Positions 4,366 through 42,534 of a DNA stretch of 64,000 nucleotides are shown here, one piece after another. The notes under the pieces were generated by a model that was given only the letters and a program-made list of their open reading frames with translations, was not told where the DNA came from and did not search any database. The first letter of the stretch is position 1. The number at the start of each line of letters is the position of its first letter. The stretch lies in contig OY762911.1 of assembly GCA_963666565.1 (NCBI GenBank), positions 4,384,011 to 4,448,010 of the forward strand, read 5' to 3'. Source of the DNA: Thermoanaerobaculia bacterium. Lineage in GTDB: Bacteria; Acidobacteriota; Thermoanaerobaculia; Multivoradales; Multivoraceae. Position numbers and translations under genes: made by a program.

Positions 4366-5442
4366 ATGAGACGCCGAGTCCCCGCAGCCCTGACTGCCGT
4401 CCTCGCCCTGTTGCTCGCCGCGACGGCCCTGACCGCCCAAGGCGAGATCAAGCGCGCCGCCAACGGCAAGCCGGACCTGACCGGCACCTACGACGCCGGC
4501 ACCCTGACGCCGCTCCAGCGGCCCGAGAAGTACGGCGACAACCTTTTCCTGAGCCCCGAGGACGCGGCGAAGATCGAGGCGGACGCGGCCCAGTACGCGG
4601 CCGACCGACATCGGGTTTCCGATCCGAACCGCAAGCCGCCGCCGGTGGGCGGCGACGGGACGACGGGCGGCGCCGGCAACGTCGGCGGCTACAACCGGTT
4701 TTGGGTCGAAACCGGCACCGAGGCCTTCGCGGTCGACGGCAAGTTCCGCACGTCTATCCTCTTCGACCCTCCGAACGGCCGCATGCCGGAGATGACCGAG
4801 GCCGGCAAGGCACGATCCGCCGAGCGCCGCCGGCTGCGCCGGCCGAACGACGGTTCCGCCTGGTGGCTCGACATCGAGGGCCACGGCCCGTACGACGGCC
4901 CCGAGACGCTGCCGGTGACCGAGCGCTGCATCGTCGGCTTCACCGGCGCCACGCCGACGTTCCCGAGTCTCTACAACAACTTCAAGCGCGTGGTCCAGAC
5001 CGAGGATCACGTCATGATCCTGATCGAGATGGTCCACGACGCCCGGATCGTGCGCCTGAACGCCGAGCATCCGAGTCCCGAGGAACGGAAGTGGCTCGGC
5101 CACTCCATCGGCTGGTGGGAAGGCGACTCCCTCGTCATCGACTCGCGGAACTTCCACCCGAAGGCCGTCCTGCGCGGCGCCACCCAGGAATCGCACGTGA
5201 CGGAGCGCCTCACGCTGCAGCCGAACGGCGACATCCTCTACCGGTTCACGATCGAGGATCCGGCGACCTGGGACGTCCCCTGGTCCGGCGAGTACATCTG
5301 GAAGCGGAGCGACGTGGACGTCTACGAGTACGCCTGCCACGAGGGTAACTACTCGATGGGCGGCACCCTGCGCGGCGCGCGGGTGCTCGAAGCCGACGCG
5401 ATGGCCGCCAAGGCCGCGAGCACCGGCGCCGGAAGCGACTAG
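4366..5442 (+). CDS. secreted protein of unknown function (YEYACHEGNY-motif family), paralog 1 of 4
   Basis: GGAGG 4354-4358 precedes ATG 4366. Signal peptide MRRRVPAALTAVLALLLAATALTAQG. Conserved blocks are PDLTGTYD, TERCIVGFTGATPTFPSLYNNFKRVVQTEDHVMILIEMVHDARIVRL, WLGHSIGWWEGDSLVIDS and YEYACHEGNY. The ORF-track start at 4183 is upstream extension only. Confidence 0.75.
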   Translation: MRRRVPAALTAVLALLLAATALTAQGEIKRAANGKPDLTGTYDAGTLTPLQRPEKYGDNLFLSPEDAAKIEADAAQYAADRHRVSDPNRKPPPVGGDGTTGGAGNVGGYNRFWVETGTEAFAVDGKFRTSILFDPPNGRMPEMTEAGKARSAERRRLRRPNDGSAWWLDIEGHGPYDGPETLPVTERCIVGFTGATPTFPSLYNNFKRVVQTEDHVMILIEMVHDARIVRLNAEHPSPEERKWLGHSIGWWEGDSLVIDSRNFHPKAVLRGATQESHVTERLTLQPNGDILYRFTIEDPATWDVPWSGEYIWKRSDVDVYEYACHEGNYSMGGTLRGARVLEADAMAAKAASTGAGSD

Positions 5443-15828: not shown

Positions 15829-16230
15829 CTACGCCAGCAGCCGCTCCAGCGCTGTCGCGGCGGCCAACAAGGCACCCACCACGAGCAGCATGCGCCAGGT
15901 CAGGTCGGCGCGCAGCTTCTCCATGTCGGCGCGAATCTCGCCGCGGAACCGGCCCATCTCGCCGCGCAGTTCAGCACGCAGTTCGCCCATCTCACCGCGC
16001 AACTCGCCCATCTCGGCGCGCAGTTCGCCCATCTCGCCACGCATCTCGGCGCGCAGTTCGCTCATCTCACCGCGCAACTCGGCACGCAGCTCGGCCATCT
16101 CGCCGCGCAGTTCGGCGTGGTCCCGCGCACGCTCGGCGCGCGTCTCGCGGCGCATCGCCTCAAGCCGCACTGCCACGTCCGATTCGGTCATGAAGGAGGT
16201 ACTCACAGTCTCCGGTTCCGTTGCTGTCAT
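15829..16230 (-). CDS. tail-anchored coiled-coil protein with ELRG/ELRA/EMRG micro-repeats
   Basis: GGAGA plus a 6-nt spacer precedes ATG 16230. The sequence is MTATEPETVSTSFMTESDVAVRLEAMRRETRAERARDHAELRGEMAELRAELRGEMSELRAEMRGEMGELRAEMGELRGEMGELRAELRGEMGRFRGEIRADMEKLRADLTWRMLLVVGALLAAATALERLLA. It has a C-terminal hydrophobic anchor. The plus-strand ORF 15890-16453 is its antisense shadow. Confidence 0.55.
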   Translation of the reverse strand: MTATEPETVSTSFMTESDVAVRLEAMRRETRAERARDHAELRGEMAELRAELRGEMSELRAEMRGEMGELRAEMGELRGEMGELRAELRGEMGRFRGEIRADMEKLRADLTWRMLLVVGALLAAATALERLLA

Positions 16231-16412: not shown

Positions 16413-17273
16413 TTACTCCAGACGGCGGTTGGGGCCGACCGCGATCTCGGTGATGTGGAGGCTCAGGCCCTCGCCGGCGCTCAGGCCGACGACGCCGTCG
16501 AGATGCAGGTCTTCCGACGGGAACTCGGCGACAGACTCTCCGCCGACGTAGAAGATCGTCCGTTCGCCCCGGACGTCGACCTCCAGCACGTTCTCGGCGG
16601 GCGACGTGGCCGGCTCGTCGAGCACGGCGACGGCGTCGTGAACGGTCCACGGCGCGAGTTCCCGCACTTCCCCGCCGACATGACGGGCCAGGCGGAAGCG
16701 GCCGGCGTTGTCCATCACGAACGAGACGTACTCGGGCGTCGGCCCCTCCAGGTCGCGGCCGCCGAGGAACAGGCCGTAGGCAGTGTCGAGCCGCGTCGAG
16801 CCGGATCGTTCCGGGTCGCCCTTCGGGAACAGGTAGATCGTGCTCTTGACGGCGTAGTTGCCCGACGCGAAGCTGCCCGGGTCCCACAGCAGACCGGCGG
16901 CGCCGGCGTAAACGTGCCAGCCGGGCCGCATGACGACGAAGCTCCGCTCGGCCGCTTCGCCGGCGCCGTCGTAGCGGACCTTCCAGTGCTCCGGACGTTC
17001 CAGGTTGTGGCCCGACTGGGCCGACACGGTTGCCGAAACCGCCATCGCGGCAACCATCGCGACGACAGCAGCGCACCATCTCCTTCGCCGTGCCGGTCTG
17101 GCGACCGGCGCGCTTTTCCGGCCGCCTCCGGCGGCAGCGGGTCGGAAGACCCGCGCACCGACAATGCGGCCAGTTTCCAACGCGACAGCGCAATGGACGC
17201 CCGCCGCGTTCTCTCGCATGCCAAGCCTCCCGCGCAAAGAGGCCAGCCGCCGCACGCTCTGAAGTCGAACCAT
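16413..17273 (-). CDS. secreted concanavalin/DUF1080-like protein (start uncertain: ATG 17273 or ATG 17057)
   Basis: The mature part HWKVRYDG..FVVMRPGWHVYAG..GNYAVKSTIYLFPKG..LEVDVRGERTIFYVGG looks like a lectin-fold secreted protein. The signal-like core RRRRWCAAVVAMVAAMAVSATVSAQS has no canonical start just upstream except ATG 17057 inside it. AGGAG plus a 5-nt spacer plus ATG 17273 is in frame and reads through REP 17120-17159. Confidence 0.5.
   Translation of the reverse strand: MVRLQSVRRLASLRGRLGMRENAAGVHCAVALETGRIVGARVFRPAAAGGGRKSAPVARPARRRRWCAAVVAMVAAMAVSATVSAQSGHNLERPEHWKVRYDGAGEAAERSFVVMRPGWHVYAGAAGLLWDPGSFASGNYAVKSTIYLFPKGDPERSGSTRLDTAYGLFLGGRDLEGPTPEYVSFVMDNAGRFRLARHVGGEVRELAPWTVHDAVAVLDEPATSPAENVLEVDVRGERTIFYVGGESVAEFPSEDLHLDGVVGLSAGEGLSLHITEIAVGPNRRLE
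17120..17159. repeat. REP element, full double-hairpin form
   Basis: ggccgcctccggcggcagcgggtcggaagacccgcgcacc. Hairpin 1 is GCCGCC-loop-GGCGGC. Hairpin 2 is GCGGGTC-GGAA-GACCCGC. Confidence 0.85.
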
Positions 17274-20791: not shown

Positions 20792-21400
20792 GTGCCGGAC
20801 ACGCAACAGGACGCGCGACTGCACGAGTTGAGAGCGCTGATCCAGGAGCGGAGCATCGCCAAGGGCGACTTCGTCCTGACCTCCGGCGCCCGCTCGCACT
20901 ACTACTGCGACACGAAGGCGACGGTGCTGTCGCCGCGGGGCTCGCGGCTGATCGGCGAGGCGCTCTGCGACGTGTTGCGGCCCTTCGGAGTCGACGCCGT
21001 CGGCGGGCCCGAAGTAGGCGGCGCCTACCTGGCGACGGCCGCGTCCGTGGCGAGCGACCTCGGCGGGCCGCCGCTGTTCGGCTTCCTGGTCCGCAACAAG
21101 GCGAAGGGCCACGGCACGAGCGCCCGCATCGACGCCTCGTACCACCCGGACGGCCGCAAGCTGATCGTCGCGGGCCGGCGGGTCGCCGTCGTCGACGACG
21201 TCGTCACCTCGGCCGGCTCGATCCTGCGCGCTATCGAGGCGGTCGAGGCCGAGGGCTGCGAAGTCGCCGCCGTGTCGGCGGTCGTCGACCGCCAGGAGGG
21301 AGGCGGCGACCGCCTGCGCGAACTCGGTTACGACTTCCGGCCGCTGTTCCTCGCCGACGGCGAAGGCGACCTGACGCTCCACGCCGGAGACGGACGATGA
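20792..21400 (+). CDS. pyrE: orotate phosphoribosyltransferase
   Basis: GTG 20792. The sequence contains GDFVLTSGARSHYYCDTK, the PRPP-binding loop VAVVDDVVTSAGS, and VVDRQEGG. The upstream part of the ORF-track entry 20117-21400 is antisense to the DUF1640-like gene. Confidence 0.7.
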   Translation: MPDTQQDARLHELRALIQERSIAKGDFVLTSGARSHYYCDTKATVLSPRGSRLIGEALCDVLRPFGVDAVGGPEVGGAYLATAASVASDLGGPPLFGFLVRNKAKGHGTSARIDASYHPDGRKLIVAGRRVAVVDDVVTSAGSILRAIEAVEAEGCEVAAVSAVVDRQEGGGDRLRELGYDFRPLFLADGEGDLTLHAGDGR

Positions 21401-21420
21401 GAAACGGGCCGACGGCCAGG

Positions 21421-21660
21421 TGCGCCGGAAGCGGGTCGGAAGACCCGCGCACCCAGCGACGAGCGACGCTGGCAGGCAGGCGCGCCGGAAGCGGGTCGGA
21501 AGACCCGCGCACCCAGCGACGAGCGACGCTGGCAGGCAGGTGCGCCGGAAGCGGGTCGGAAGACCCGCGCACCCAGCGACGAGCGACGCTGGCAGCCAAG
21601 CGCGCCGGAAGCGGGTCGGAAGACCCGCGCACCCGGCGGCGAGCGACGCAGGCAGGCAGG
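21421..21660. repeat. tandem array of 4 x 60-bp units, each containing one REP hairpin
   Basis: The unit (t/c)gcgccggaagcgggtcggaagacccgcgcacccagcgacgagcgacgctggcaggcagg is repeated four times with few substitutions. The repeats line up exactly with the 60-nt print lines 21421, 21481, 21541 and 21601. Confidence 0.95.
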
Positions 21661-21663
21661 CAC

Positions 21664-23859
21664 GTGCCCGCCGCGGCGGCCACCGTCGCGCTCGCCGCCC
21701 TGGCGCTGGCCGGCATCGCCACCGGCCCGGCCCAGGCGCACGTGCGGATCACGACCGACATCAACTTCGCCGAGGACGTCCGCCCGATTCTCCGCCGCTA
21801 CTGCATGCCCTGCCACAACCCGAAGGGCTCGGCGCCGGACTACATCGACCTGACCACCTACGGCAACGACGCGAAGCCCGGCGCCCGCGCCTGGGCGGTG
21901 GCGATCGAAGAAGAGCTGATGACCGGGCGCATGCCGCCGTGGACCGCCGACGCCCGCTACGACCATTTCCGCAACTCGCGGCGGATGAGCCAGCAGGAGA
22001 TCGACATCCTCGTCGCCTGGGTCCAGGGCGGCGGACCCCAGGGGCCGCGCCGCAACCTGCCGCCGCCGCTGGAGTTCACGGAAGAGGAGTGGGTGCTCGG
22101 CTACCCCGACCTGGTGCTCGAACCTGCCGGCGAAACCGTTCTCGACGGCGGGCGCCAGACCGCCTCCCACCGCGAGACGCTCGCCGTCGAGCTCGAGGAG
22201 GACGCCTGGATCACCGGCTACGAGTTCCGGCCGCAGCACCCGGGCGTCGTCTATCGCATGGCGGCCTGGATCCAGGAACCCGAGGACGCCGAGCCGGAGC
22301 AGCTCGAAGTCGAGGTCCAGGTTCCCTACGACCCCTTCCGCGACGAGGACGAACCCGAGCCGACCCGGATGCGCACCGCGACCGCCGGCCCCCAGTTCCT
22401 CGGCCAGTGGCTGCGCGGCGACGACCCGGTACTGCTGCCGGACGGCGCCGGCAAGCGGCTCCGAGCCGGTTCGAAGATCGAGCTCGCCGTCGAGTACCGG
22501 CGGCGCCCCAACGACGACTCGCGGATCGAGATCCGCGATCGTTCGAGCCTCGGCCTGTTCCTGGCCCAGACCGAGGACGAAGTCGAGCTCTGGGTCGAGA
22601 GCCAGCGGGCCGGCGGCGAGGTCGCGCTCAAGGGCCGGCGCGCCGCCCGGCCGCAAACCGCGAGCGTGACGCTCGCCGAGCGCGCACGCCTGATCGGACT
22701 CCACCCTCACGTCGGCGACCGGCTCGCCAGCATGGAGATCCGCGTCCACTTCCCCGACCAGCGGGTCCAGACCGTGCTCTACGTTCCGGAGTACGACCCC
22801 GAGTTCCCCTCCTCCTACCTGTTCGAGGAGGCGATTCACGCCCCGCCCGGCACCCGCGTCGAACTGATCGGCTCGTTCGACACCGGCAGGGAGGGCAAGG
22901 GAAGGGAGACGATCGTCCAGCCCTTCGCGCTCCACGTGGACTACGAACTGGACGACCACCTCGTCCTGCCCGAGATCTTCGTGCCGCGCGAGCAGCCGCA
23001 GACCCGCGGCGGCATGCTGGCGGCGGGCCTCGGCGGCGCCGACCTGCCCGGCGGCGGCGAGGGCGCCGGAGCGCCGGGCTTCGCGCCCAACCCCGCCGAC
23101 CCGAACGCCGCCGCCCACATGGACCACAAACCGCTCCACGGCGGCCAGTTCTTCATGGCGGCGAACAACTACCACCACCTGGAGGGCGCGCTGCCGAACG
23201 CCGGCGAGTTCCGGCTCTACGTCTACGACGACTTCAAGCAGCCGGTCGATCCGCGAAACTTCGGCGGCGACGTCGTCTTCGAGGCGTGGAACGAGGAGAC
23301 CGAGAGCTGGGACGAGACCCGCTATCCGATGGCGCCGGCGATCGGCAGCGACTACCTGCTCTCGGAGATCCCCGGCGAACTCCCCAGCGAGTTCTTCGCC
23401 CACGTCTGGCTGGCCGGCGAACAGCAGCGCTACGACTTCTTCTTCGAGGAGACGACGGTCGAACCCGTCGGCGGCGCCTCCCGCGGCGGCGGCGCCATTC
23501 GCGCCGGGCCGCACAGCCACGAGCGGCCGCCGATGACGATCCCCCAGTACCCGGAGGCGATCGCCGCCCTGATGGCGCTCAAGCGCGACCGCGTCCGCAG
23601 CCAGATCGAGAACGGCGAGTGGCTGACGCTCTACGTGCCCGCCTTCGACGCGCGCGACCTGGCGGAAGCCCTGCTCGACCGGCTGGACGCCCTGAGCGCC
23701 CGGGAGCGCGGCCAGGCGCGGCGGGCGATCGGCCGCGTCATGCAGAGCGCCGCCGAACTCGACCGCAGCGGCGACCTGGCCGACCGGGCGCGCGCCCAGC
23801 GGGCGTTCGAGCGCTTCGACGGCGGCGTCCGCGAGCTGCTCGACCTGATCGAACCGTGA
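21664..23859 (+). CDS. secreted protein with an N-terminal c-type cytochrome (CxxCH) domain, function unknown
   Basis: GTG 21664 gives the signal peptide (M)PAAAATVALAALALAGIATGPAQA, then ..VRPILRRYCMPCHNPKGSAPD (a single heme-binding motif). The protein is 731 aa. An alternative SD plus ATG at 21397 is in frame through the REP array (see findings). Confidence 0.6.
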   Translation: MPAAAATVALAALALAGIATGPAQAHVRITTDINFAEDVRPILRRYCMPCHNPKGSAPDYIDLTTYGNDAKPGARAWAVAIEEELMTGRMPPWTADARYDHFRNSRRMSQQEIDILVAWVQGGGPQGPRRNLPPPLEFTEEEWVLGYPDLVLEPAGETVLDGGRQTASHRETLAVELEEDAWITGYEFRPQHPGVVYRMAAWIQEPEDAEPEQLEVEVQVPYDPFRDEDEPEPTRMRTATAGPQFLGQWLRGDDPVLLPDGAGKRLRAGSKIELAVEYRRRPNDDSRIEIRDRSSLGLFLAQTEDEVELWVESQRAGGEVALKGRRAARPQTASVTLAERARLIGLHPHVGDRLASMEIRVHFPDQRVQTVLYVPEYDPEFPSSYLFEEAIHAPPGTRVELIGSFDTGREGKGRETIVQPFALHVDYELDDHLVLPEIFVPREQPQTRGGMLAAGLGGADLPGGGEGAGAPGFAPNPADPNAAAHMDHKPLHGGQFFMAANNYHHLEGALPNAGEFRLYVYDDFKQPVDPRNFGGDVVFEAWNEETESWDETRYPMAPAIGSDYLLSEIPGELPSEFFAHVWLAGEQQRYDFFFEETTVEPVGGASRGGGAIRAGPHSHERPPMTIPQYPEAIAALMALKRDRVRSQIENGEWLTLYVPAFDARDLAEALLDRLDALSARERGQARRAIGRVMQSAAELDRSGDLADRARAQRAFERFDGGVRELLDLIEP

Positions 23860-27825: not shown

Positions 27826-27966
27826 GCGCGGGTCTTCCGACCCGCCCTGCTGGGTGCGCGGGTCCTCCGACCCGCTCTGCTGGGTGCGCGGGTCCTCCGA
27901 CCCGCCCTGCTGGGTGCGCGGGTCCTCCGACCCGCCCTGCTGGGTGCGCGGGTCTTCCGACCCGCT
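27826..27966. repeat. tandem array of 5 x 30-bp REP units
   Basis: The unit gcgcgggtc(t/c)tccgacccgc(c/t)ctgctgggt is repeated with an exact 30-bp period (cores at 27826, 27856, 27886, 27916, 27946). It lies between two convergent stop codons (27814 and 27967). Confidence 0.95.
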
Positions 27967-28533: not shown

Positions 28534-28765
28534 CTGGGGGCTCGCTTCCTCTTGGGGTGTGTTCGGTGGTGGCGGAATCCCGGGACCGCGGCGTTCCCGG
28601 CGCTCAAGGGGCCGGCATCGTAACACCTGGGTCGGACGCCTGCGCCTGCGTCGGACGCCCGCGCCCGGGTCGGACGCCCGCGCCTGGCTCGGCCGCCCGC
28701 GGCACGCGCTGCTACGCTCCATCGACCGCCATTCGGAACCGTTCATCGCCCAGGGAGACCTGCCC

Positions 28766-29800
28766 ATGCTCCACCGTCCCGCGCGCGGCCATCGGCCGCT
28801 GCCGCTTCCCGTCCTTCTCCTCCTTCTGTCGTTCGCGGCGTCCGGCGCGGTCGCGCAGACGGTCACCGTGTGCATGCCGTCGTTCTTCGCCGACTCGCTG
28901 GGCGACCTCCAGGAGAAGCACGAGAATCTCCGCCTGGCGATCATCGACGACGACCTGGACCCCAGCGACTGCAACGGCCTGATCGCGGGCTACCGTGGCG
29001 TCGAGAACTACCTGACGGCAGACGGCGACCTCCGCTGGATCCAGAGCAACTCGGCCGGCGTCGAGGGCTTCCTCGAGATCCCGGACCTGCGCGACAGCGA
29101 CATCGTGCTGACCAACGCGAAGATCATCCAGGGCCCCGAGATCGCCGACCACGCCTTCGCCCTGCTGCTGAACTTCACCCGCAACATCAAGGCGTTCAAC
29201 GCCCGGATGGCGGAGGGCTGGAACACGGACCGCGAGCTGCCGATGATCGAGCTCCGGGGCAAGACGGCGCTGGTCATCGGCCTCGGCGGCATCGGCACCC
29301 AGATCGCGCAGCGGGGCGCCGCCTTCGGCATGACGGTGCTCGCCGTCGATCCGAAGGACATCCCGATCCACCGCGACGTCGCCTACGTCGGCAAGCCGGA
29401 CGAACTCGACGACCTGCTGCCGCGGGCCGACGTTGTCTTCTCGTCCGTGCCGCACACGCCCGCCACGGAGGGGATGATCGGCGCCCGCCAGTTCGAGCTG
29501 ATGAAGCAGGACGTGTACTTCATCAACATCTCGCGCGGCAAGATCGTCGACACGGACGCCCTGGTGGCGGCGCTTCAGAGCGGCAAGGTCCGCGCCGCCG
29601 GGCTGGACGTGACGGACCCCGAGCCCCTGCCCACCGGCCACCCGCTGTGGACGATGCCGAACGTCACGATCACGCCGCATCTGGCGACGATCTCCGACCG
29701 GCTGGAAGAGCGCCGAACGGCGCTGCTGCGCGACAACGTCACGCGCTTCGCCACCGGCAGGCCGCTCCGCAACGTGGTCGACAAGCAGGTCGGCTACTAG
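28766..29800 (+). CDS. D-isomer-specific 2-hydroxyacid dehydrogenase family protein with an apparent signal peptide
   Basis: AGGGAGA precedes ATG 28766. MLHRPARGHRPLPLPVLLLLLSFAASGAVAQT, then the NAD fold GKTALVIGLGGIGTQIAQRGAAFGMTVLAVD, FINISRGKIVD, GLDVTDPEPLP and TPHLAT. Confidence 0.75.
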   Translation: MLHRPARGHRPLPLPVLLLLLSFAASGAVAQTVTVCMPSFFADSLGDLQEKHENLRLAIIDDDLDPSDCNGLIAGYRGVENYLTADGDLRWIQSNSAGVEGFLEIPDLRDSDIVLTNAKIIQGPEIADHAFALLLNFTRNIKAFNARMAEGWNTDRELPMIELRGKTALVIGLGGIGTQIAQRGAAFGMTVLAVDPKDIPIHRDVAYVGKPDELDDLLPRADVVFSSVPHTPATEGMIGARQFELMKQDVYFINISRGKIVDTDALVAALQSGKVRAAGLDVTDPEPLPTGHPLWTMPNVTITPHLATISDRLEERRTALLRDNVTRFATGRPLRNVVDKQVGY

Positions 29801-29809
29801 GAGGCGCCG

Positions 29810-32800
29810 CTGCGAACCAGCAGCGCCGGCGCGCAGGCAACCCGCAGCACACCGGGTGCGCGGGTCTTCCGACCCGCACGACAGCTGGGTGCGCGGGTCT
29901 TCCGACCCGCACACGGGCGAAGCCGCGGAGCGGCGCAGCCCGCACGACAGCGGCGCCGGCCTTCGGCCGGCACGTTCTTCCGGCCGCCTTCGGCGGCAGC
30001 GGGTCGGAAGACCCGCGCACCCGGCGGCACGTTCCTCGCCCTCCTGCTCTGCGCCGCTGCCGCGGCCGCTCAGCCGGCGGCGGAGGCGCCGCCGGACCTC
30101 CTCGACGCCCTCGCGTTCCGCCACGTCGGGCCCATCGGCAACCGGGTCTCCGCCGTCGCCGGCGTCCCCGGCGATCCGCTGACCTGGTACGCCGGCGCCG
30201 CCTCCGGCGGGCTGTGGCGCAGCAACGACGGCGGCGTCGGCTGGGACCCCATCTTCGACCGGCAGGAGGCAGCGTCGGTCGGCGCCATCGCCGTCGCTCC
30301 GTCCGACCCGAACGTCGTCTGGGCCGGGACCGGCGAGAGCTTCATCCGCAGCAACATCTCGATCGGCGACGGCGTCTACCGCTCCACCGACCGCGGCGAC
30401 ACCTGGGACCACCTCGGCCTCGAAGCCAGCGGCCGGATCGGCCGCATCCTGGTCCGCCCTGACGACCCGGACACGGCCCTGGTCGCCGCCCTCGGCCACG
30501 CCTACGGGCCGCAGCCGCGCGAGGAGGCCGGCCGCGGCGTCTTCCGCACGACGGACGGCGGCGCCACCTGGGAGCACGTCCTCTTCGTCGACCCGGACAC
30601 CGGCATCGTCGACCTCGCCTTCGCACCCGACAACCCGCGCTTCGTCTACGCCGCGGCCTGGCAGATCGAGATCCGCACCTCCGGCCGCACCAGCGGCGGC
30701 CCGGGCAGCGGCATCTACCGGTCCGGGGACGGCGGCGATTCCTGGACGCTCCTCGACGGCGCGGGGCTGCCGGCGTCGCCGCTGGGCAAGATCGGACTCG
30801 CCGTCTCGGCCGACGATCCGGACCGGGTCTACGCCCTGATCGAGACGAGCTCGAACCGGGACTTCGCCCCCTCCGATCCCTTCGCCGGCGTCCTCTGGCG
30901 CTCGGACGACCGCGGCGACTCCTGGCGCCTGGTCAGCCGCAACCTCGACCTGATCACCCGGCCGCTCTACTACACGCGGATGGCCGCCGCGCCCGACCGC
31001 GCCGACGAGATCACCTTCGTCGCCACCCGGCAACGGGTGTCGCTCGACGGCGGTCGCACCGTCGCTACCGAGGGCTTCGACCAGCCCGGCTGGGACCACC
31101 ACGACATCTGGATCGACCCGCTCGACCCGGACCGCCGGATCGTCGGCCACGACGGCGGCGTCAGCGTCACGCACGACCGCGGGCGATCCTGGTACAGGCC
31201 CCAGTTGCCGATCGCGCAGATGTACCACGTCTCGACCGACGACCGCGTGCCCTACTTCGTCTACGGCAACCGGCAGGACGGCCCGTCGATGCGGGGGCCG
31301 AGCCGCGTGCTCTACGGCGGCCGCACCGCCGGCATCCCGGTCGGCGAGTGGCACTCGGTCGGCGGCTGCGAGGTCGGCTTCTCCATGGTCCACCGCGCCG
31401 ACAACGACCTGGTCTGGACCGGCTGCTACGACGGCCAGCTCGAGCTGTACGACCTGCGCTCCGGCCAGTCCCGCGACGTCAGCGTCTGGCCGCTGGCGAT
31501 CGAGGGGTCGCCGGCTTCGGAACTCCAGTACCGCTTCCAGTGGACCGCGCCCTTCGCCACCTCGCCGCACGATCCGGAGACCGTCTACGCCGGCAGCCAG
31601 TACGTCCACCGGAGCCGCGACCGCGGCCAGAGCTGGGAGCGGATCTCGCCCGATCTCACGACGGCCGACCCGGCGCTCATGCAGCGAACCGGCGGCCTGA
31701 CCCTCGACGACGCCGGACCGACCATCGCGCCGGTCGTGTTCGCGATCGCGGAGAGCCCGCTTGAGCCCGGCCTGATCTGGGCCGGCACGAACGACGGCCA
31801 GGTCCAGTTGACCCGCGACGGCGGCGCGACCTGGACCGACGTGACGGCCAACATTCCCGGCCTGCCGCCCCTGGGCACCGTGCGGAACATCGATCCGTCC
31901 GACGTCGACGCCGGCGCGGCGTACGTGGCGATCGACCGTCACCAGGAAGGCGACACGACGCCCTACGCGTTCCGGACGAACGACTACGGCGAGACCTGGA
32001 CCGACCTCGCCGCCGGCCTGCCGCGCGGTCCGCTCGCCAACGTCCACGCCATCCGCGAGGATCCGGAGCAGGCCGGACTCCTGTTCCTGGGCGCCGAGAA
32101 CGCGCTCCACGTCTCCTTCGACGACGGCGCGAACTGGCGAAGCCTGTCCCGCCGCAGCGACGGCGCCCCGAACCTGGCGCCAGCGCCCGTCCACTGGATC
32201 GAGGTCCAGGAACACTTCGACGATCTGGTCGTCGCCACCTACGGCCGCGGCATCTGGATCCTCGACGACCTGACGCCCCTGCGCGAGATCGCCCGCGGCC
32301 TGACGGATCGCGGCCCGGCCCTCTTGCCGCCCCGCGCCGCCTACCGCTTCCGCACCCGCGGCGCGCCGATGGCCCAGCCCGACGTCCCGGCCACCGGCAC
32401 GAACCCGCCCTACGGCGCCCTGCTCCACTACTGGGTCCCGCCGCCTCCCGCCCCGCCGGGTGCGCGGGTCTTCCGACCCGCTTCCGGGGAAAGCGCGCTG
32501 GGTGCGCGGGTCTTCCGACCCGCATCCGGGAAGACCGCGCCGGGTGCGCGAGTCTTCCCGCCCGCATCCGGCGAAACCGCACTGGGTACGCGGGTCTTCC
32601 GACCCGCATCGGGGGAGACCGCGACGATCCGCATCCGCGACGCCGGCGGCAACCTCGTCCGCACCCTCGACGGTCTCCCCTCGGCGCCGGGCCTCCACCG
32701 CGTCACCTGGGACCTGCGCCACGACCCGACCGCCCAGGTCCGGCTGCGCTCGAAGCCGGACGAGCGGCCCGACTGGGAGATGCCGGACCAGGGCTGGCGG

Positions 32801-33529
32801 CCCCTGCCCGACGGCGGCCGTTTCTCCATGCTGGCGGCGCCGGGCAGCTACACGATCGAACTCGTACTTCCTGGCGGCGGCGGCGACAGCGACAGGAGCA
32901 GCGCGGACGAGGGCGAGACGCCTCCCCCGAGCGAGGCCGGCAGCGCGGACGAGAGCGAGGCGGCGCCGCAGACTGACGGCGACGCGGAAGAGGACGGCTA
33001 TCCGGCGTCGACGGTCCATCTCGACGTCATGCTCGACCCGGACTCCACCGCCTCCGCCGCCGACCTGGCCGCGCAGCAGGCCCTGCTCGTCGAGATCCGC
33101 GACGGCATCGAACGCGCCGCATACCTCCTCAACGAAGCCGAGCGTCTCCGCCGCGACCTGCGCCAGCTCGAGGATCGCCTCATGGACGAAGGCGGCAGCA
33201 TCGAGATCTCCGAAGCGACCGACCGGGTCACCGCGCTACGGCAGGACCTCCGCTCGATCGAGGAGACGTTCTTCGACCTCCGCCTGACCGGTACCGGCCA
33301 GGATTCGCTGCGCTGGCCGCGCCGGCTCTACGCCCGGCTGACCTACCTCGCCCGCTCGGTCGCCCAGACCGACGCGAGGCCGACGGATCAGCAGGCGGCG
33401 GTGTGGGAGCTGCTCGCGGGCCAGCTCGCCGAACAGGAGCAGCGGTTCGACGCCACGCTTGCCGGCCCGCTGGCGGACCTGAACCGGACCCTTGCCGACA
33501 GCGGATTCCTGCTGGTGGCCCCTCCTTGA
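29810..33529 (+). CDS. secreted BNR/Asp-box repeat (sortilin/VPS10-like) protein; true start unresolved
   Basis: Frame 2 is open from 29801. Signal-like FLALLLCAAAAAAQPAAEA begins at 30032. Asp-boxes: WRSNDGGVGW, YRSTDRGDTW, FRTTDGGATW, YRSGDGGDSW, WRSDDRGDSW, THDRGRSW, SRDRGQSW, TRDGGATW, SFDDGANW. No ATG, GTG or TTG occurs in frame before 30980, which explains why the ORF track starts there. AGGAGG 29799-29804 plus a 5-nt spacer plus in-frame CTG 29810 is the only SD-associated candidate start. Confidence 0.65.
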   Translation: MRTSSAGAQATRSTPGARVFRPARQLGARVFRPAHGRSRGAAQPARQRRRPSAGTFFRPPSAAAGRKTRAPGGTFLALLLCAAAAAAQPAAEAPPDLLDALAFRHVGPIGNRVSAVAGVPGDPLTWYAGAASGGLWRSNDGGVGWDPIFDRQEAASVGAIAVAPSDPNVVWAGTGESFIRSNISIGDGVYRSTDRGDTWDHLGLEASGRIGRILVRPDDPDTALVAALGHAYGPQPREEAGRGVFRTTDGGATWEHVLFVDPDTGIVDLAFAPDNPRFVYAAAWQIEIRTSGRTSGGPGSGIYRSGDGGDSWTLLDGAGLPASPLGKIGLAVSADDPDRVYALIETSSNRDFAPSDPFAGVLWRSDDRGDSWRLVSRNLDLITRPLYYTRMAAAPDRADEITFVATRQRVSLDGGRTVATEGFDQPGWDHHDIWIDPLDPDRRIVGHDGGVSVTHDRGRSWYRPQLPIAQMYHVSTDDRVPYFVYGNRQDGPSMRGPSRVLYGGRTAGIPVGEWHSVGGCEVGFSMVHRADNDLVWTGCYDGQLELYDLRSGQSRDVSVWPLAIEGSPASELQYRFQWTAPFATSPHDPETVYAGSQYVHRSRDRGQSWERISPDLTTADPALMQRTGGLTLDDAGPTIAPVVFAIAESPLEPGLIWAGTNDGQVQLTRDGGATWTDVTANIPGLPPLGTVRNIDPSDVDAGAAYVAIDRHQEGDTTPYAFRTNDYGETWTDLAAGLPRGPLANVHAIREDPEQAGLLFLGAENALHVSFDDGANWRSLSRRSDGAPNLAPAPVHWIEVQEHFDDLVVATYGRGIWILDDLTPLREIARGLTDRGPALLPPRAAYRFRTRGAPMAQPDVPATGTNPPYGALLHYWVPPPPAPPGARVFRPASGESALGARVFRPASGKTAPGARVFPPASGETALGTRVFRPASGETATIRIRDAGGNLVRTLDGLPSAPGLHRVTWDLRHDPTAQVRLRSKPDERPDWEMPDQGWRPLPDGGRFSMLAAPGSYTIELVLPGGGGDSDRSSADEGETPPPSEAGSADESEAAPQTDGDAEEDGYPASTVHLDVMLDPDSTASAADLAAQQALLVEIRDGIERAAYLLNEAERLRRDLRQLEDRLMDEGGSIEISEATDRVTALRQDLRSIEETFFDLRLTGTGQDSLRWPRRLYARLTYLARSVAQTDARPTDQQAAVWELLAGQLAEQEQRFDATLAGPLADLNRTLADSGFLLVAPP
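29854..30022. repeat. three REP copies (two reverse with 33-bp spacing, one full forward copy)
   Basis: gggtgcgcgggtcttccgacccgc occurs at 29854-29877 and 29887-29910. ggccgccttcggcggcagcgggtcggaagacccgcgcaccc occurs at 29982-30022. The last copy is flanked by ggcacgttc(t/c)tc at 29967-29978 and 30026-30037. Confidence 0.9.
32458..32607. repeat. tandem array of 4 x 42-bp REP units inside the BNR-protein coding sequence
   Basis: gggtgcgcgggtcttccgacccgc-type cores lie at 32458, 32500, 32542 (degenerate) and 32584. They are translated in frame as [56 protein letters not shown]. Confidence 0.9.
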
Positions 33530-40242: not shown

Positions 40243-42534
40243 ATGAGTCGGAACATCGTTTGCGTGCCCAGAGTGGAGCCGGCCTCTGGCCGGCGCGTTT
40301 ACTGGCCGCCTTCGGCGGCGGCGGGTCGGAAGACCCGCGCACCCAGGCGCGTTTACTGGCCGCCTTCGGCGGCGGCGGGTCGGAAGACCCGCGCACCCAG
40401 CGGCCTCGGACTTGTCGTCGCCGTTGCGCTGGCGGCGCCGGTCGCCGTCGCGGCGCAGGAGGACGCGAACCCGATCGAGCCGCACCACGTCGCCTCGCTG
40501 CGCAGCGTCGGCACGGTCGAGGTGTCGCCCGACGGCAGCCTCGCGGCCTACCTGCTGAGCGTCCCGCGGCGGCCGCTGGACGAGGAGAGCGGCGGCTCGT
40601 GGACCGAGCTGCACGTGCTCGACATGAGCGAACCCGGCTCGTCCCGGCCGTACGTCGCCGGCGAAGTCAACGTCGGGCGTCCCGCCTTCCGCGGCAACGG
40701 CGAGATCCTGTACACGGCCCGCCGCGGCTCGGACAAGGTCTCCGCCCTCTACGGCATCCCCGTCGGCGGCGGCGAGAGCCGCAAGCTGGTCGAACACGCG
40801 AACGGCGTCGGCGCCTGGGTCCTGTCGCCCGACGGCAGCCGGGTGGCGTTCCTGGCCCGCGAGGACACCGACAAGGAACTCAAGACGCTCCGCGAGAAGG
40901 GCTTCAACCAGGAGATCTACGAGGAGGACCGGCCCCTGACGCGGCTCTGGATCGCCGACGTTCCGGCTCTCGGCGCCGACCGCGGCGACGACGAAGCCAA
41001 GCCGGCCCTCGTCGAGTCGCTGGAGGGGCACGTCCTCTCCGCCGTCTGGAGCCCGGCGGGCGACCGGCTCGCCGCCGTCACCACGCCCACCGCGCTGATC
41101 GACGACTCCTACACGAGCAAATCCGTCACCGTCGTCGACGTCGCCGCCGGGGATTTTCCCGTCGTCTCGTCCGTGCGAGCGATCGGCAAGCTCGGCCAGG
41201 TCGAGTTCAGCCCGAACGGCGAGCAGGTCGCCGCGGTCTCGGCCGCCGACGTCAACGACCCCGCCGCCGGCAGGCTGATGTCGATCGGCGGCGCCGACGA
41301 CTTCAGCGACCTGCTGCCGGAGCTCGAAGGCCACGTCGCCTCCTTCGCCTGGGAGGACGACGAGAATCTGCTCTACGCCGCCTCCGTCGGCGTCTGGACC
41401 ACCCTGGGCAGGGTGTCCACGGCCGGCGAGGCGGAGACCCTGATCGAACCGGGCGGCCTGATCGTCCTCGCCTTTACGCTGCCCCGCGACGGCGGCCCGG
41501 CGGCTCTGGTCGCCGACAGCCCGGACCACCCGAGGGAGATCTACCGCTACGACCCGGCAACGCCGGAGGCGCCGCCCGTGCGGATGACGAACTCGAACCC
41601 CTGGCTCGACGACATCGACCTCGCCCGCCAGGAAGTCGTCCGGCACACGGCGCCCGACGGCCTGGAACTCGAAGGGCTGCTGATCCATCCCCTCGACTAC
41701 GAGGAGGGCCGGCGCTACCCGCTCATCCTGTTCGTCCACGGCGGCCCGGAGAGCCATCACAGCAACGGCTGGCTGACCAGCTACTCGAACTTCGCGCAAC
41801 TGGCCGCCGCCCGCGGCTTCGTGTCGTTCTTCCCGAACTACCGCGGCAGCACGGGGCGGGGCGTCGAGTTCTCGAAGCTCGGCCAGCACGCAGCCGCCGG
41901 CCCCGAGTTCGACGACCTGATCGTCGCGGTCGACCACCTGATCGAGATCGGCCTCGTCGACCGCGACCGGGTCGGCATCACCGGCGGCTCCTACGGCGGC
42001 TACGCGTCGGCCTGGGGCGCGACCTACTACTCGGACCGCTTTGCCGCGGCGATTCCCTTCGTCGGCATCTCGAACAACATCTCCAAGCTGGGGACGACGG
42101 ACATCCCGCTGGAGATGGAACTCGTCCACCACCGCACGACGCTCTGGGACGACTGGGACTACTTCGAGAAGAGCAGCCCCATCTACTACGTCAAGCGCAA
42201 CCGCACGCCCACGCTCATCCTGCACGGCAAGGAGGACCCGCGGGTCCATCCCGCCCAGTCGCTGGAACTGCACCGGCACCTGAAGTCCCTCGGCCAGGCG
42301 CCCGTGCGGCTGGTGCTCTACCCGGGCGAGGGCCACGGCAACCGGCGCTCGGCGGCCCGCCTCGACTACATGCTACGCACCCTGCGGTGGATGGAGCACT
42401 ACCTCCAGGGCCCCGGCGGCGATCCGCCGCCGCACGAGATCGACTACGCGGCCTACCTGCCCTGGGCGGACGACGACGGCGACGACGAGGAAGCCGACAC
42501 CCCGGACGCCGAGCCGACGGGCGGCGGCGAGTGA
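40243..42534 (+). CDS. S9-family prolyl oligopeptidase / acylaminoacyl peptidase-like serine protease
   Basis: AGGAGA 40231-40236 plus a 6-nt spacer precedes ATG 40243. The beta-propeller half is followed by VHGGPESHH, the nucleophile ITGGSYGGY, and LHGKEDPRV..GEGH. The first ~52 codons include two in-frame REP units ahead of the hydrophobic core LGLVVAVALAAPVAVAA. Confidence 0.8.
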   Translation: MSRNIVCVPRVEPASGRRVYWPPSAAAGRKTRAPRRVYWPPSAAAGRKTRAPSGLGLVVAVALAAPVAVAAQEDANPIEPHHVASLRSVGTVEVSPDGSLAAYLLSVPRRPLDEESGGSWTELHVLDMSEPGSSRPYVAGEVNVGRPAFRGNGEILYTARRGSDKVSALYGIPVGGGESRKLVEHANGVGAWVLSPDGSRVAFLAREDTDKELKTLREKGFNQEIYEEDRPLTRLWIADVPALGADRGDDEAKPALVESLEGHVLSAVWSPAGDRLAAVTTPTALIDDSYTSKSVTVVDVAAGDFPVVSSVRAIGKLGQVEFSPNGEQVAAVSAADVNDPAAGRLMSIGGADDFSDLLPELEGHVASFAWEDDENLLYAASVGVWTTLGRVSTAGEAETLIEPGGLIVLAFTLPRDGGPAALVADSPDHPREIYRYDPATPEAPPVRMTNSNPWLDDIDLARQEVVRHTAPDGLELEGLLIHPLDYEEGRRYPLILFVHGGPESHHSNGWLTSYSNFAQLAAARGFVSFFPNYRGSTGRGVEFSKLGQHAAAGPEFDDLIVAVDHLIEIGLVDRDRVGITGGSYGGYASAWGATYYSDRFAAAIPFVGISNNISKLGTTDIPLEMELVHHRTTLWDDWDYFEKSSPIYYVKRNRTPTLILHGKEDPRVHPAQSLELHRHLKSLGQAPVRLVLYPGEGHGNRRSAARLDYMLRTLRWMEHYLQGPGGDPPPHEIDYAAYLPWADDDGDDEEADTPDAEPTGGGE
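40292..40398. repeat. tandem array of 2 x 54-bp full REP units
   Basis: ggcgcgtttactggccgccttcggcggcggcgggtcggaagacccgcgcaccca occurs twice (starts 40292 and 40346). It is translated as [18 protein letters not shown] x2 in the peptidase frame. Confidence 0.95.

Follow-up and report, generated by a model that had tools for sequence, protein, structure and literature searches.

Short palindromic repeats that are read in frame within bacterial genes have been described in several systems. Intragenic copies of repetitive extragenic palindromes (REPs) tagged by GTAG or CGTC were catalogued in 2013, and they occur as singles, dimers and grouped repeats that encode 20-30 aa (Di Nocera, De Gregorio, Rocco, BMC Genomics 14:522; PMC3733652). 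The same work describes REP clusters that encode 43-82 aa in Thauera and R. conorii, with many copies at N-termini, and short GC-rich stem-loop REPs that lie in frame in Opitutus terrae, Thauera and other species. It also argues that REP-tagged proteins are modular and that large clusters reiterate REPs in tandem with flanking DNA (PMC3733652). Fusions of RPE, BRE, RUP and MIRU elements with open reading frames (ORFs) were reviewed by Delihas in 2011 (PMC3184786). Here we describe an array of four REP units that lies in frame inside the gene for a BNR/sortilin-Vps10-type protein of a Thermoanaerobaculia bacterium. The stretch that was analysed, which we call the window, comprises 64 kb of a chromosome of ~4.79 Mb in a genome of 69% GC. 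We put at roughly three in four the probability that the array is a passenger that a permissive site tolerates; it would then be a minisatellite of REPs in a coding region and not a functional module.

The features on which this analysis centres are the following:

32459-32626, + strand: four-unit REP array, from Tandem Repeats Finder (TRF) and translation; its 56 residues are residues 811-866 of a 1166-residue protein counted from 30029

32423-32458, + strand: upstream flank, the propeller end LLHYWVP and the residual native linker PPPPAPP, from the alignment with orthologues and the DNA alignment with the relative L067

32627-32900, + strand: downstream flank, a FlgD-Ig-like beta domain that begins at TIRIRD (Pfam FlgD_ig; AlphaFold2 strands 865-946)

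30029-33529, + strand: body of the BNR/sortilin-Vps10-type double-propeller protein, from Pfam and the orthologue alignment

Tryptic peptides predicted from the array-bearing product: VFRPASGESALGAR, VFPPASGETALGTR, VFRPASGETATIR

TRF placed the array at 32454-32623, with a period of 42 bp, 4.0 copies and 82% matches. When aligned to codons, the units occupy 32459-32500, 32501-32542, 32543-32584 and 32585-32626, with 14 codons each in head-to-tail order. The original prediction, which was made from the sequence alone, had proposed four 42-bp REP units in frame in the BNR gene; TRF found the same array and the translation was exactly the same, but the coordinates given there (32458-32625) were one base off the codon boundary. 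The junctions of the array are CCG/GGTGCG at the 5' end and ..GACCGCG/ACGATCCGC at the 3' end. In the protein, the array is preceded by ..LLHYWVPPPPAPP and followed by TIRIRDAGGNLVRTLDGLPSAPGLHRVTWDLRHD (TIRIRDAGG..), and units 3 and 4 are translated GARVFPPASGETAL and GTRVFRPASGETAT. The claim that the frame and about 300 downstream codons stay intact also held, as 301 codons follow the array up to the stop at 33529.

Each unit consists of a 24-nt REP and an 18-nt spacer. The REP begins with GGGTGC and continues as the hairpin GCGGGTC-TTCC-GACCCGC, which has a 7-bp stem and a 4-nt loop. The units differ from one another at 4-10 of their 42 positions. The 7-bp hairpin is kept in units 1, 2 and 4, while unit 3 is degenerate and the head of unit 4 is mutated (GTAC for GTGC). 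As read from the unit sequences, the 42-bp unit is free of stop codons in all frames.

The hairpin core, GCGGGTCTTCCGACCCGC, has 21 matches in the window at two or fewer mismatches where 0.04 are expected, and none of 100 shuffles reached 21. At three or fewer mismatches there are 22 copies at 10 loci, and nearly all of them have a YGGGTGC head in front. Because the core count lies far above expectation and the copies have this head in common, the repeat is a genuine dispersed REP-like family and not a protein repeat. A derivation of the REP from a protein repeat was considered and ruled out, as the identical 24-mer sits in clearly non-coding gaps. Single REPs lie in such gaps at 17137, 27342, 55951 and 61876 (coding potential and ORF inspection), and a 30-bp x 5 array at 27826-27965 exactly occupies the gap that separates the rpsN stop (27814) from that of a convergent gene (27967). 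Six copies have a composite form in which a second hairpin, GCCGCC-GNAG-GGCGGC, follows the REP. Of the window's arrays, only the one at 32459-32626 is located in the interior of a coding sequence.

The family has hallmarks of a REP: it is a short (20-40 bp) imperfect palindrome with a GC-rich stem-loop, and it is dispersed in high copy number, mainly outside genes and often on their 3' sides or in convergent gaps. It lacks a terminal GTAG or CGTC beside the stem, where the tetranucleotide is GTGC, and GTGC is not among the degenerate tags accepted for GTAG REPs (GYAG, GYRG, GTRG, GTMG and GTGG; PMC3733652). No Rfam family matched anywhere in the window. The window yielded no RAYT gene, although no search was aimed at RAYT genes.

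Five REP arrays were found in the window, at 21417 (period of 60 bp), 27826 (30), 29840 (33), 32454 (42) and 40292 (54), and all five have a period divisible by 3. The chance of this is 0.004 if periods are random (n=5). The rule holds also for the clearly non-coding array at 27826 between convergent stops.

Relatives of the host gene define the empty site. Full-length orthologues (1,039-1,165 aa, 75-86% identity) were found by a protein database search in metagenome-assembled genomes (MAGs) of Holophagales, Thermoanaerobaculia and "Candidatus Multivorans". In 28 species-level orthologues from Ca. Multivorans/Thermoanaerobaculia sponge symbionts, the gene is a single ORF without the array, colinear with the window's gene on both sides of it. 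The segment from HYW[IV]P to ATIRIRD measures 10-60 residues in these orthologues and is mostly acidic or of low complexity; ATIRIRD is the first strand of the Ig-like domain, and the array falls exactly in the hypervariable linker before it. The REP peptide was found in this linker segment in none of the 28 orthologues, and a genome scan showed the REP core to be absent from the linker position in 66 of 66 related loci. The possibility that two separate ORFs meet at the array is rejected, since every orthologue is one continuous ORF; for the same reason a refutation of the original prediction on that ground does not apply.

Wider searches returned no further arrays of this kind. A 220-aa query centred on the linker found no further array-bearing relatives, and scans of JGI metagenomes with the REP/Ig junction and with the 24-nt REP gave 0 hits each. 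The 55-aa REP peptide had no match at E<=1e-3 in a database of 5.8 billion proteins, a result that is uninformative for a query so short and repetitive in a database so large. In another clade (L016, ~5371-5410; P0003, P0006, P0010 and P0020), the same linker contains G(A)GVSPASG(A/E)ER. The L016 linker DNA, GGGAACGCGGGCGTCTCGCCCGCATCCGG, gave a best local score of 16 against the REP unit, compared with a shuffle maximum of 15. These linkers may perhaps be old, decayed REP insertions, but the likeness is suggestive only and we do not claim it.

The product of the BNR gene comprises, in order, a signal-peptide h-region (TFLALLLCAAAAAAQ), the propellers, the linker, the FlgD-Ig-like domain, an acidic low-complexity insert and a C-terminal helical domain. 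It matches Sortilin-Vps10, BNR and FlgD_ig in Pfam and has a remote match to the GH74 xyloglucanase 2cn3 (E=1.7e-10). An AlphaFold2 model, which was built on a 29-sequence alignment and has a mean confidence (pLDDT) of 62, predicts coil with pLDDT <50 for residues 809-862, with a strand at 797-803 before them and the Ig strands from 865. As judged from the orthologue alignment and this moderate model, the array sits at a permissive kind of site for an in-frame palindromic insert, a hypervariable linker that is predicted to be coil. This agrees with the original prediction of a linker before a C-terminal beta-rich domain: the alignment with orthologues that lack the insert defined the insertion point within one gene, and the structure prediction gave coil for the array region. 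A second disordered insert, which is acidic (DSDRSSADEGETPPPSEAGSADESE..), lies at 32880-33010 after the Ig-like domain and is hypervariable in length across the orthologues; within it, a 30-bp in-frame duplication distinguishes the window from L067 (8204-8233).

L067 is a close relative that carries two REP units at the same site. This contig (ENA ERZ21830300) was reached via protein P0027, is 94-97% identical to the window at the DNA level and is syntenic with it over the mau genes, rpsN and the dehydrogenase, BNR, hydrolase and nuclease genes. Its linker consists of the native APSESSAASDEPP followed by the two units, and the 5' and 3' junctions are identical to those in the window. The array at rpsN also differs in length, with 5 units in the window and 2 in L067. 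The simplest history for the linker would be one ancestral insertion followed by a change in copy number, in which the window lineage gained, or L067 lost, a block of 84 bp. We favour an older over a recent array because the window's units have accumulated 4-10 differences among themselves.

To determine how the gene has evolved since it acquired the array, dN/dS was computed without the array, and single-site differences were polarized with six outgroups. Between the window and L067, dS was 0.135, dN was 0.028 and dN/dS was 0.20; comparisons with REP-less orthologues gave the same picture (0.17-0.25). The window branch had 29 synonymous and 19 non-synonymous changes (omega 0.23, 95% CI 0.12-0.42, P=4e-7 against neutrality), and the L067 branch had 37 and 21 (omega 0.20). 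Of 314 alignment columns in which the other 28 sequences never vary, the window protein differs at 2, while close orthologues differ at 0-4. On these counts, the gene stayed under purifying selection of ordinary strength during most of the period after it acquired the array, assuming that the two- and four-unit arrays stem from one event. Continued selection after the acquisition therefore supports a reading in which the insertion behaves like those in Rickettsia.

Four public runs (X1-X4), which represent one host organism in three samples, provided independent reads. All runs with related sequence were sponge or marine metagenomes. Each of X1-X4 contained all the words sampled from the gene body (100%), and exact unitigs at a single-copy depth of ~45-50x covered 30000-31114 and 31097-32479; one 664-nt unitig (31816-32479) runs into unit 1. 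In X1, a single 215-nt unitig (32505-32719) at single-copy depth extends through units 2-4, reaches into the Ig domain and shows 0 differences. In X2-X4, only 80-82% of the sampled words of 32200-32900 were present, and no exact unitig covered unit 3 (32555-32572), with both flanks present. Because X2-X4 lose these words and the unit-3 unitig while the gene body is 100% present, the array is probably polymorphic among host samples. Unitigs end inside REPs, so that the number of units is not countable and the variants of X2-X4 are not reconstructable from them; a comparison of copy numbers, as suggested in the original prediction, showed a difference between L067 and the window. A frameshift or stop that would leave the downstream part untranslated had been named there as well, and the unitigs contain neither.

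Based on these results, we propose a model for the origin of the array. A lineage-specific REP, abundant and mostly intergenic in this sponge-associated acidobacterium of the Ca. Multivorans type, would have landed in linker DNA of the BNR/sortilin-type gene. The landing site would have been a naturally hypervariable, disordered linker between the propeller body and the FlgD-Ig-like domain. Local amplification of the REP together with 18 nt of adjoining sequence may then have given rise to the head-to-tail array, which would be translated as a disordered linker extension of 56 residues rich in Pro, Gly, Ser and Arg. Copy number would shift by slippage or unequal recombination, to 2 in L067 and 4 here. 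Because the unit measures 42 bp (14 codons) and is GC-rich and stop-free in all frames, the ORF survives any copy number. We infer that the protein is made with the insert now or was made with it until recently.

The 5' end of the gene bears on this last point. Two features lie there:

29801-30028, + strand: REP-rich segment of ~220-228 bp, from just after the dehydrogenase stop TAG (29798-29800) to the BNR h-region

28766-29800, + strand: D-isomer 2-hydroxyacid dehydrogenase gene, the upstream neighbour (Pfam 2-Hacid_dh_C, E=6.7e-60; synteny in L067 and L001-L037)

In most relatives, the dehydrogenase stop lies 4 nt ahead of a TTG start of the BNR gene. Eight related species have, after that stop, GAGG-TTG-CGT-CAC-AGA-GCG-TTC-CTC and an N-terminus that reads MRHRAFLALLLCAAAAAAQ. 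In the window, TAGGAGG is followed by REP sequence and homology returns at CGTTCCTCGCC; the 13 nt with the TTG start are gone, and the ancestral TTGCGTCACAGAG (the TTG start and the MRHR codons) has been replaced by the REP segment. This segment contains two direct REPs with a 33-bp period, at 29854-29877 and 29887-29910, and, in inverted orientation, a composite REP at ~29982-30023, made up of a GCCGCC-TTCG-GGCGGC hairpin and a REP. The junction between REP and h-region is common to 4/4 runs (three samples). For 29948-29971, which holds a GCCGGCC-TTC-GGCCGGC hairpin, no exact unitig was found in any run, and a small assembly error (an indel) is possible there. At the same 5' site, L002, L007, L013 and L022 carry another type of REP, CTGGGTGCGCCGGCG-YCCC-CGCCGGC, and L024 and L010 carry the same REP family as the window. 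Because several related species carry REPs there, the site is a REP insertion hotspot.

The BNR frame is open from 29801 to 33529 (1,243 codons), and its first canonical in-frame start is ATG 30980, from which gene callers derive an 849-aa product (P0017) that lacks the signal peptide and ~317 propeller residues. Candidate non-canonical starts are CTG 29810, which is in frame 5 nt after GGAGG, ACG 29972 and ACG 30029. CTG 29810 could serve as a weak start. Thus, the BNR gene either may have lost its function only recently in this genome or may be translated from a non-canonical start.

Several observations weigh against the proposal that the array is a tolerated passenger in a working protein. 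Between 29801 and 30979 there is no in-frame ATG, GTG or TTG. Because the TTG start has been replaced and no canonical start lies ahead of the signal peptide, the protein may be unmade in this genome or may be made without a signal peptide. In L067, the 5' site is free of REPs and a GTG start has been kept, but the BNR gene contains two indels, one of +1 immediately behind the signal peptide (L067 5450, ~ window 30094) and one of +5 within the Ig domain (L067 7937-7941, ~ window 32643), with clean flanking genes. These indels mark either a young pseudogene or an assembly error. Both known array-bearing alleles thus carry a lesion, and the gene could be in the process of being lost in this clade. 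No RNA was found for the window allele; the only metatranscriptome match, X24, represents REP-less orthologues that are ~88-90% identical and have a short native linker. In addition, the AlphaFold2 model is overall of only moderate quality, and the neutrality of the array is an assumption.

The alternative that draws most on these observations is that the gene is a recently inactivated pseudogene and that the array is junk in dead DNA, where a 42-bp period, being a multiple of 3, preserves the frame automatically and by luck. Its best arguments are the missing canonical start ahead of the signal peptide, the truncated product of 849 aa that gene callers give (P0017) and the +1 and +5 frameshifts of L067. 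As the unit is stop-free in every frame, the openness of the array is also hardly informative. However, other observations speak against inactivation. The gene runs through 1,166 codons without a stop or frameshift, and its conserved residues are intact. Since the shared insertion, both branches have evolved with omega ~0.2, so that a neutral phase can have taken up no more than a minority of the branch. Because omega is ~0.2, the lesions are either recent or, in L067, sequencing errors or, in the window, compensated. The junction between REP and h-region is identical in four runs from three samples, and the in-frame CTG 29810, 5 nt after GGAGG, provides a possible weak start. We therefore regard inactivation as possible but doubtful, and we retain the passenger in a gene under selection as the preferred explanation.

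Another alternative is that the array is functional and selected. It might provide a longer, flexible and positively charged linker that alters the reach or orientation of the Ig domain, or a row of stable mRNA hairpins at which ribosomes pause between the domains or which modulate the stability of the message. The array has been kept at the same site in two diverged relatives, three of its four units fold 7-bp GC hairpins, and the 201-nt array region has a minimum free energy (MFE) of -117 kcal/mol (z=-3.1). In two genes, moreover, a REP of the same family lies in frame beside a signal-peptide h-region. Yet 28 orthologues function without the array, its copy number is unstable, and its units are decaying (4-10 differences per 42 nt, one hairpin lost and the head of unit 4 mutated); retention over a dS of ~0.13 would be expected for a neutral insert too. 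On balance, we consider selection for the array improbable.

Very improbable, and already largely refuted, is the view that the array arose as an artefact when a repeat-rich MAG was assembled or collapsed and that the true locus has another number of units, a frameshift or two ORFs: repeats do break short-read graphs, unitigs end inside REPs and leave the units uncountable, and X2-X4 lack exact unitigs over unit 3, but the 215-nt unitig of X1 matches units 2-4 at single-copy depth with 0 differences, the 664-nt unitig enters unit 1, the independent assembly of L067 has the same junctions, and the orthologues are single ORFs.

REPs of this family also occur in frame in other genes of the window. 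An S9 peptidase gene (Pfam E=1.9e-48) starts at ATG 40243, with AGGAGAG 7 nt upstream and 13 nt after the previous stop. A 54-bp x 2 composite REP array (40292-40400), confirmed by exact single-copy unitigs, lies in frame between this ATG and the h-region SGLGLVVAVALAAPVAVAAQ, that is, in the n-region. The only in-frame canonical starts, 40243, 40264 and 40273, are all ahead of the array. Because no canonical start follows it, an S9 precursor with a signal peptide must contain 2 x 18 REP residues (36). Remote homologues (<=55% identity) start ~40-45 residues later and are too distant to fix the ancestral N-terminus. A composite REP in the same orientation and frame as in the S9 peptidase adjoins the BNR h-region upstream. 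A third case, the 60-bp x 4 array at 21417-21661, is in frame with a downstream secreted-protein gene when read from the ATG that, as ATGA, overlaps the upstream stop (window 21397-21664). This case is ambiguous, as GTG 21664 just after the array would be an equally good start.

In sum, three of the five arrays are in frame and separate a possible start codon from a signal-peptide h-region, and in two genes (BNR and the S9 peptidase) a composite REP supplies a positively charged n-region directly before the h-region. One could imagine that secreted proteins recurrently draw on the family, which would be frame-neutral, as a building block for their exposed and unstructured parts; we consider this unlikely. 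If it were true genome-wide, REP amplification would amount to a rapid remodelling of the signal peptides and linkers of the secretome. Two tandem repeats of the window are of other kinds. Upstream of the dehydrogenase gene, the divergent intergenic region contains a 19-bp x 4 repeat at 28626-28701 (CCTGGGTCGGACGCCCGCG), which belongs to a family other than the REP. The complex repeat at 15952-16116 (GCCCATCTCGCCGCGCAG..), with nested periods of 21, 33, 54 and 75 bp, resembles a coding repeat of the coiled-coil type on the opposite strand.

We believe that the BNR locus is a clean case of a selfish or structural DNA repeat that has been absorbed into a protein: the site is known to the nucleotide, it is empty in 28 species, a two-unit intermediate exists and selection on the gene has continued. 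It extends in-frame REP insertion to sponge symbionts of the Acidobacteriota and to REPs with a head other than GTAG. It opens no new mechanism. There is also a cost for annotation, as REPs have erased the canonical start of the BNR gene and sit in the signal peptide of the S9 peptidase, so that callers truncate or mis-start such genes (849 aa versus ~1,166).

How does this locus compare with known systems? The observation is real and the original prediction was right in kind when it spoke of RPE-like behaviour, but the novelty that it implied did not stand, since in-frame REP clusters have already been described (PMC3733652, PMC3184786). The Rickettsia palindromic elements (RPEs; Ogata et al. 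2000, cited in PMC3733652) are dispersed palindromes that lie in frame in intact genes at sites compatible with the fold, and the array in the BNR gene resembles them in this. RPEs are single insertions of ~100-150 bp in AT-rich, obligate intracellular bacteria, whereas the array is a 24-nt REP with a spacer, repeated four times in a genome of 69% GC. Nor does it belong to the families RPE-1 to RPE-8, from which it is set apart by its unit of 24 + 18 nt and its Acidobacteriota host; it has no Rfam match and no sequence relationship to them.

The REP/BIME clusters and REPINs that are mobilized by RAYT in E. coli and Pseudomonas share with the window's family a conserved head and hairpin, a very high copy number and differences in copy number between close relatives. 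Both also favour the spaces that follow a gene's 3' end or separate convergent genes (27826-27965 is an example in the window). However, the window's arrays are direct and head-to-tail, not inverted doublets, and the composite form pairs the REP with another hairpin, GCCGCC-GNAG-GGCGGC. Coding minisatellites and MIRU, as reviewed in PMC3184786 (Supply et al. 1997), resemble the array in having tandem units of 3n length, copy numbers that vary among strains and ORFs that run through the repeats and into neighbouring genes or between them. MIRU measure 40-100 bp, are without a REP-type head and hairpin and lie between the genes of operons, whereas the unit in the window is built on a genome-wide REP and lies in a domain linker.

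The locus fits the picture drawn for the GTAG and CGTC REPs. Like them, the family in the window is a short (20-40 bp) GC-rich stem-loop that is mostly intergenic, is reiterated in tandem with flanking DNA and occasionally lies in ORFs, as singles, dimers or clusters that encode 20-82 aa, where placement in permissive or modular parts would leave the protein functional. Unlike them, it carries the tag GTGC (GTAC in unit 4). Its host is an uncultured sponge symbiont of the Acidobacteriota, a phylum for which the survey of PMC3733652 reported only repeats of the terminal inverted repeat (TIR) type. Its array consists of four head-to-tail units with a 3n period, and selection after the insertion was tested here and not in PMC3733652. 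Thus, this locus is set apart by the GTGC tag, the phylum, the four-unit array with its 3n period, and a series of empty sites together with a two-unit intermediate.

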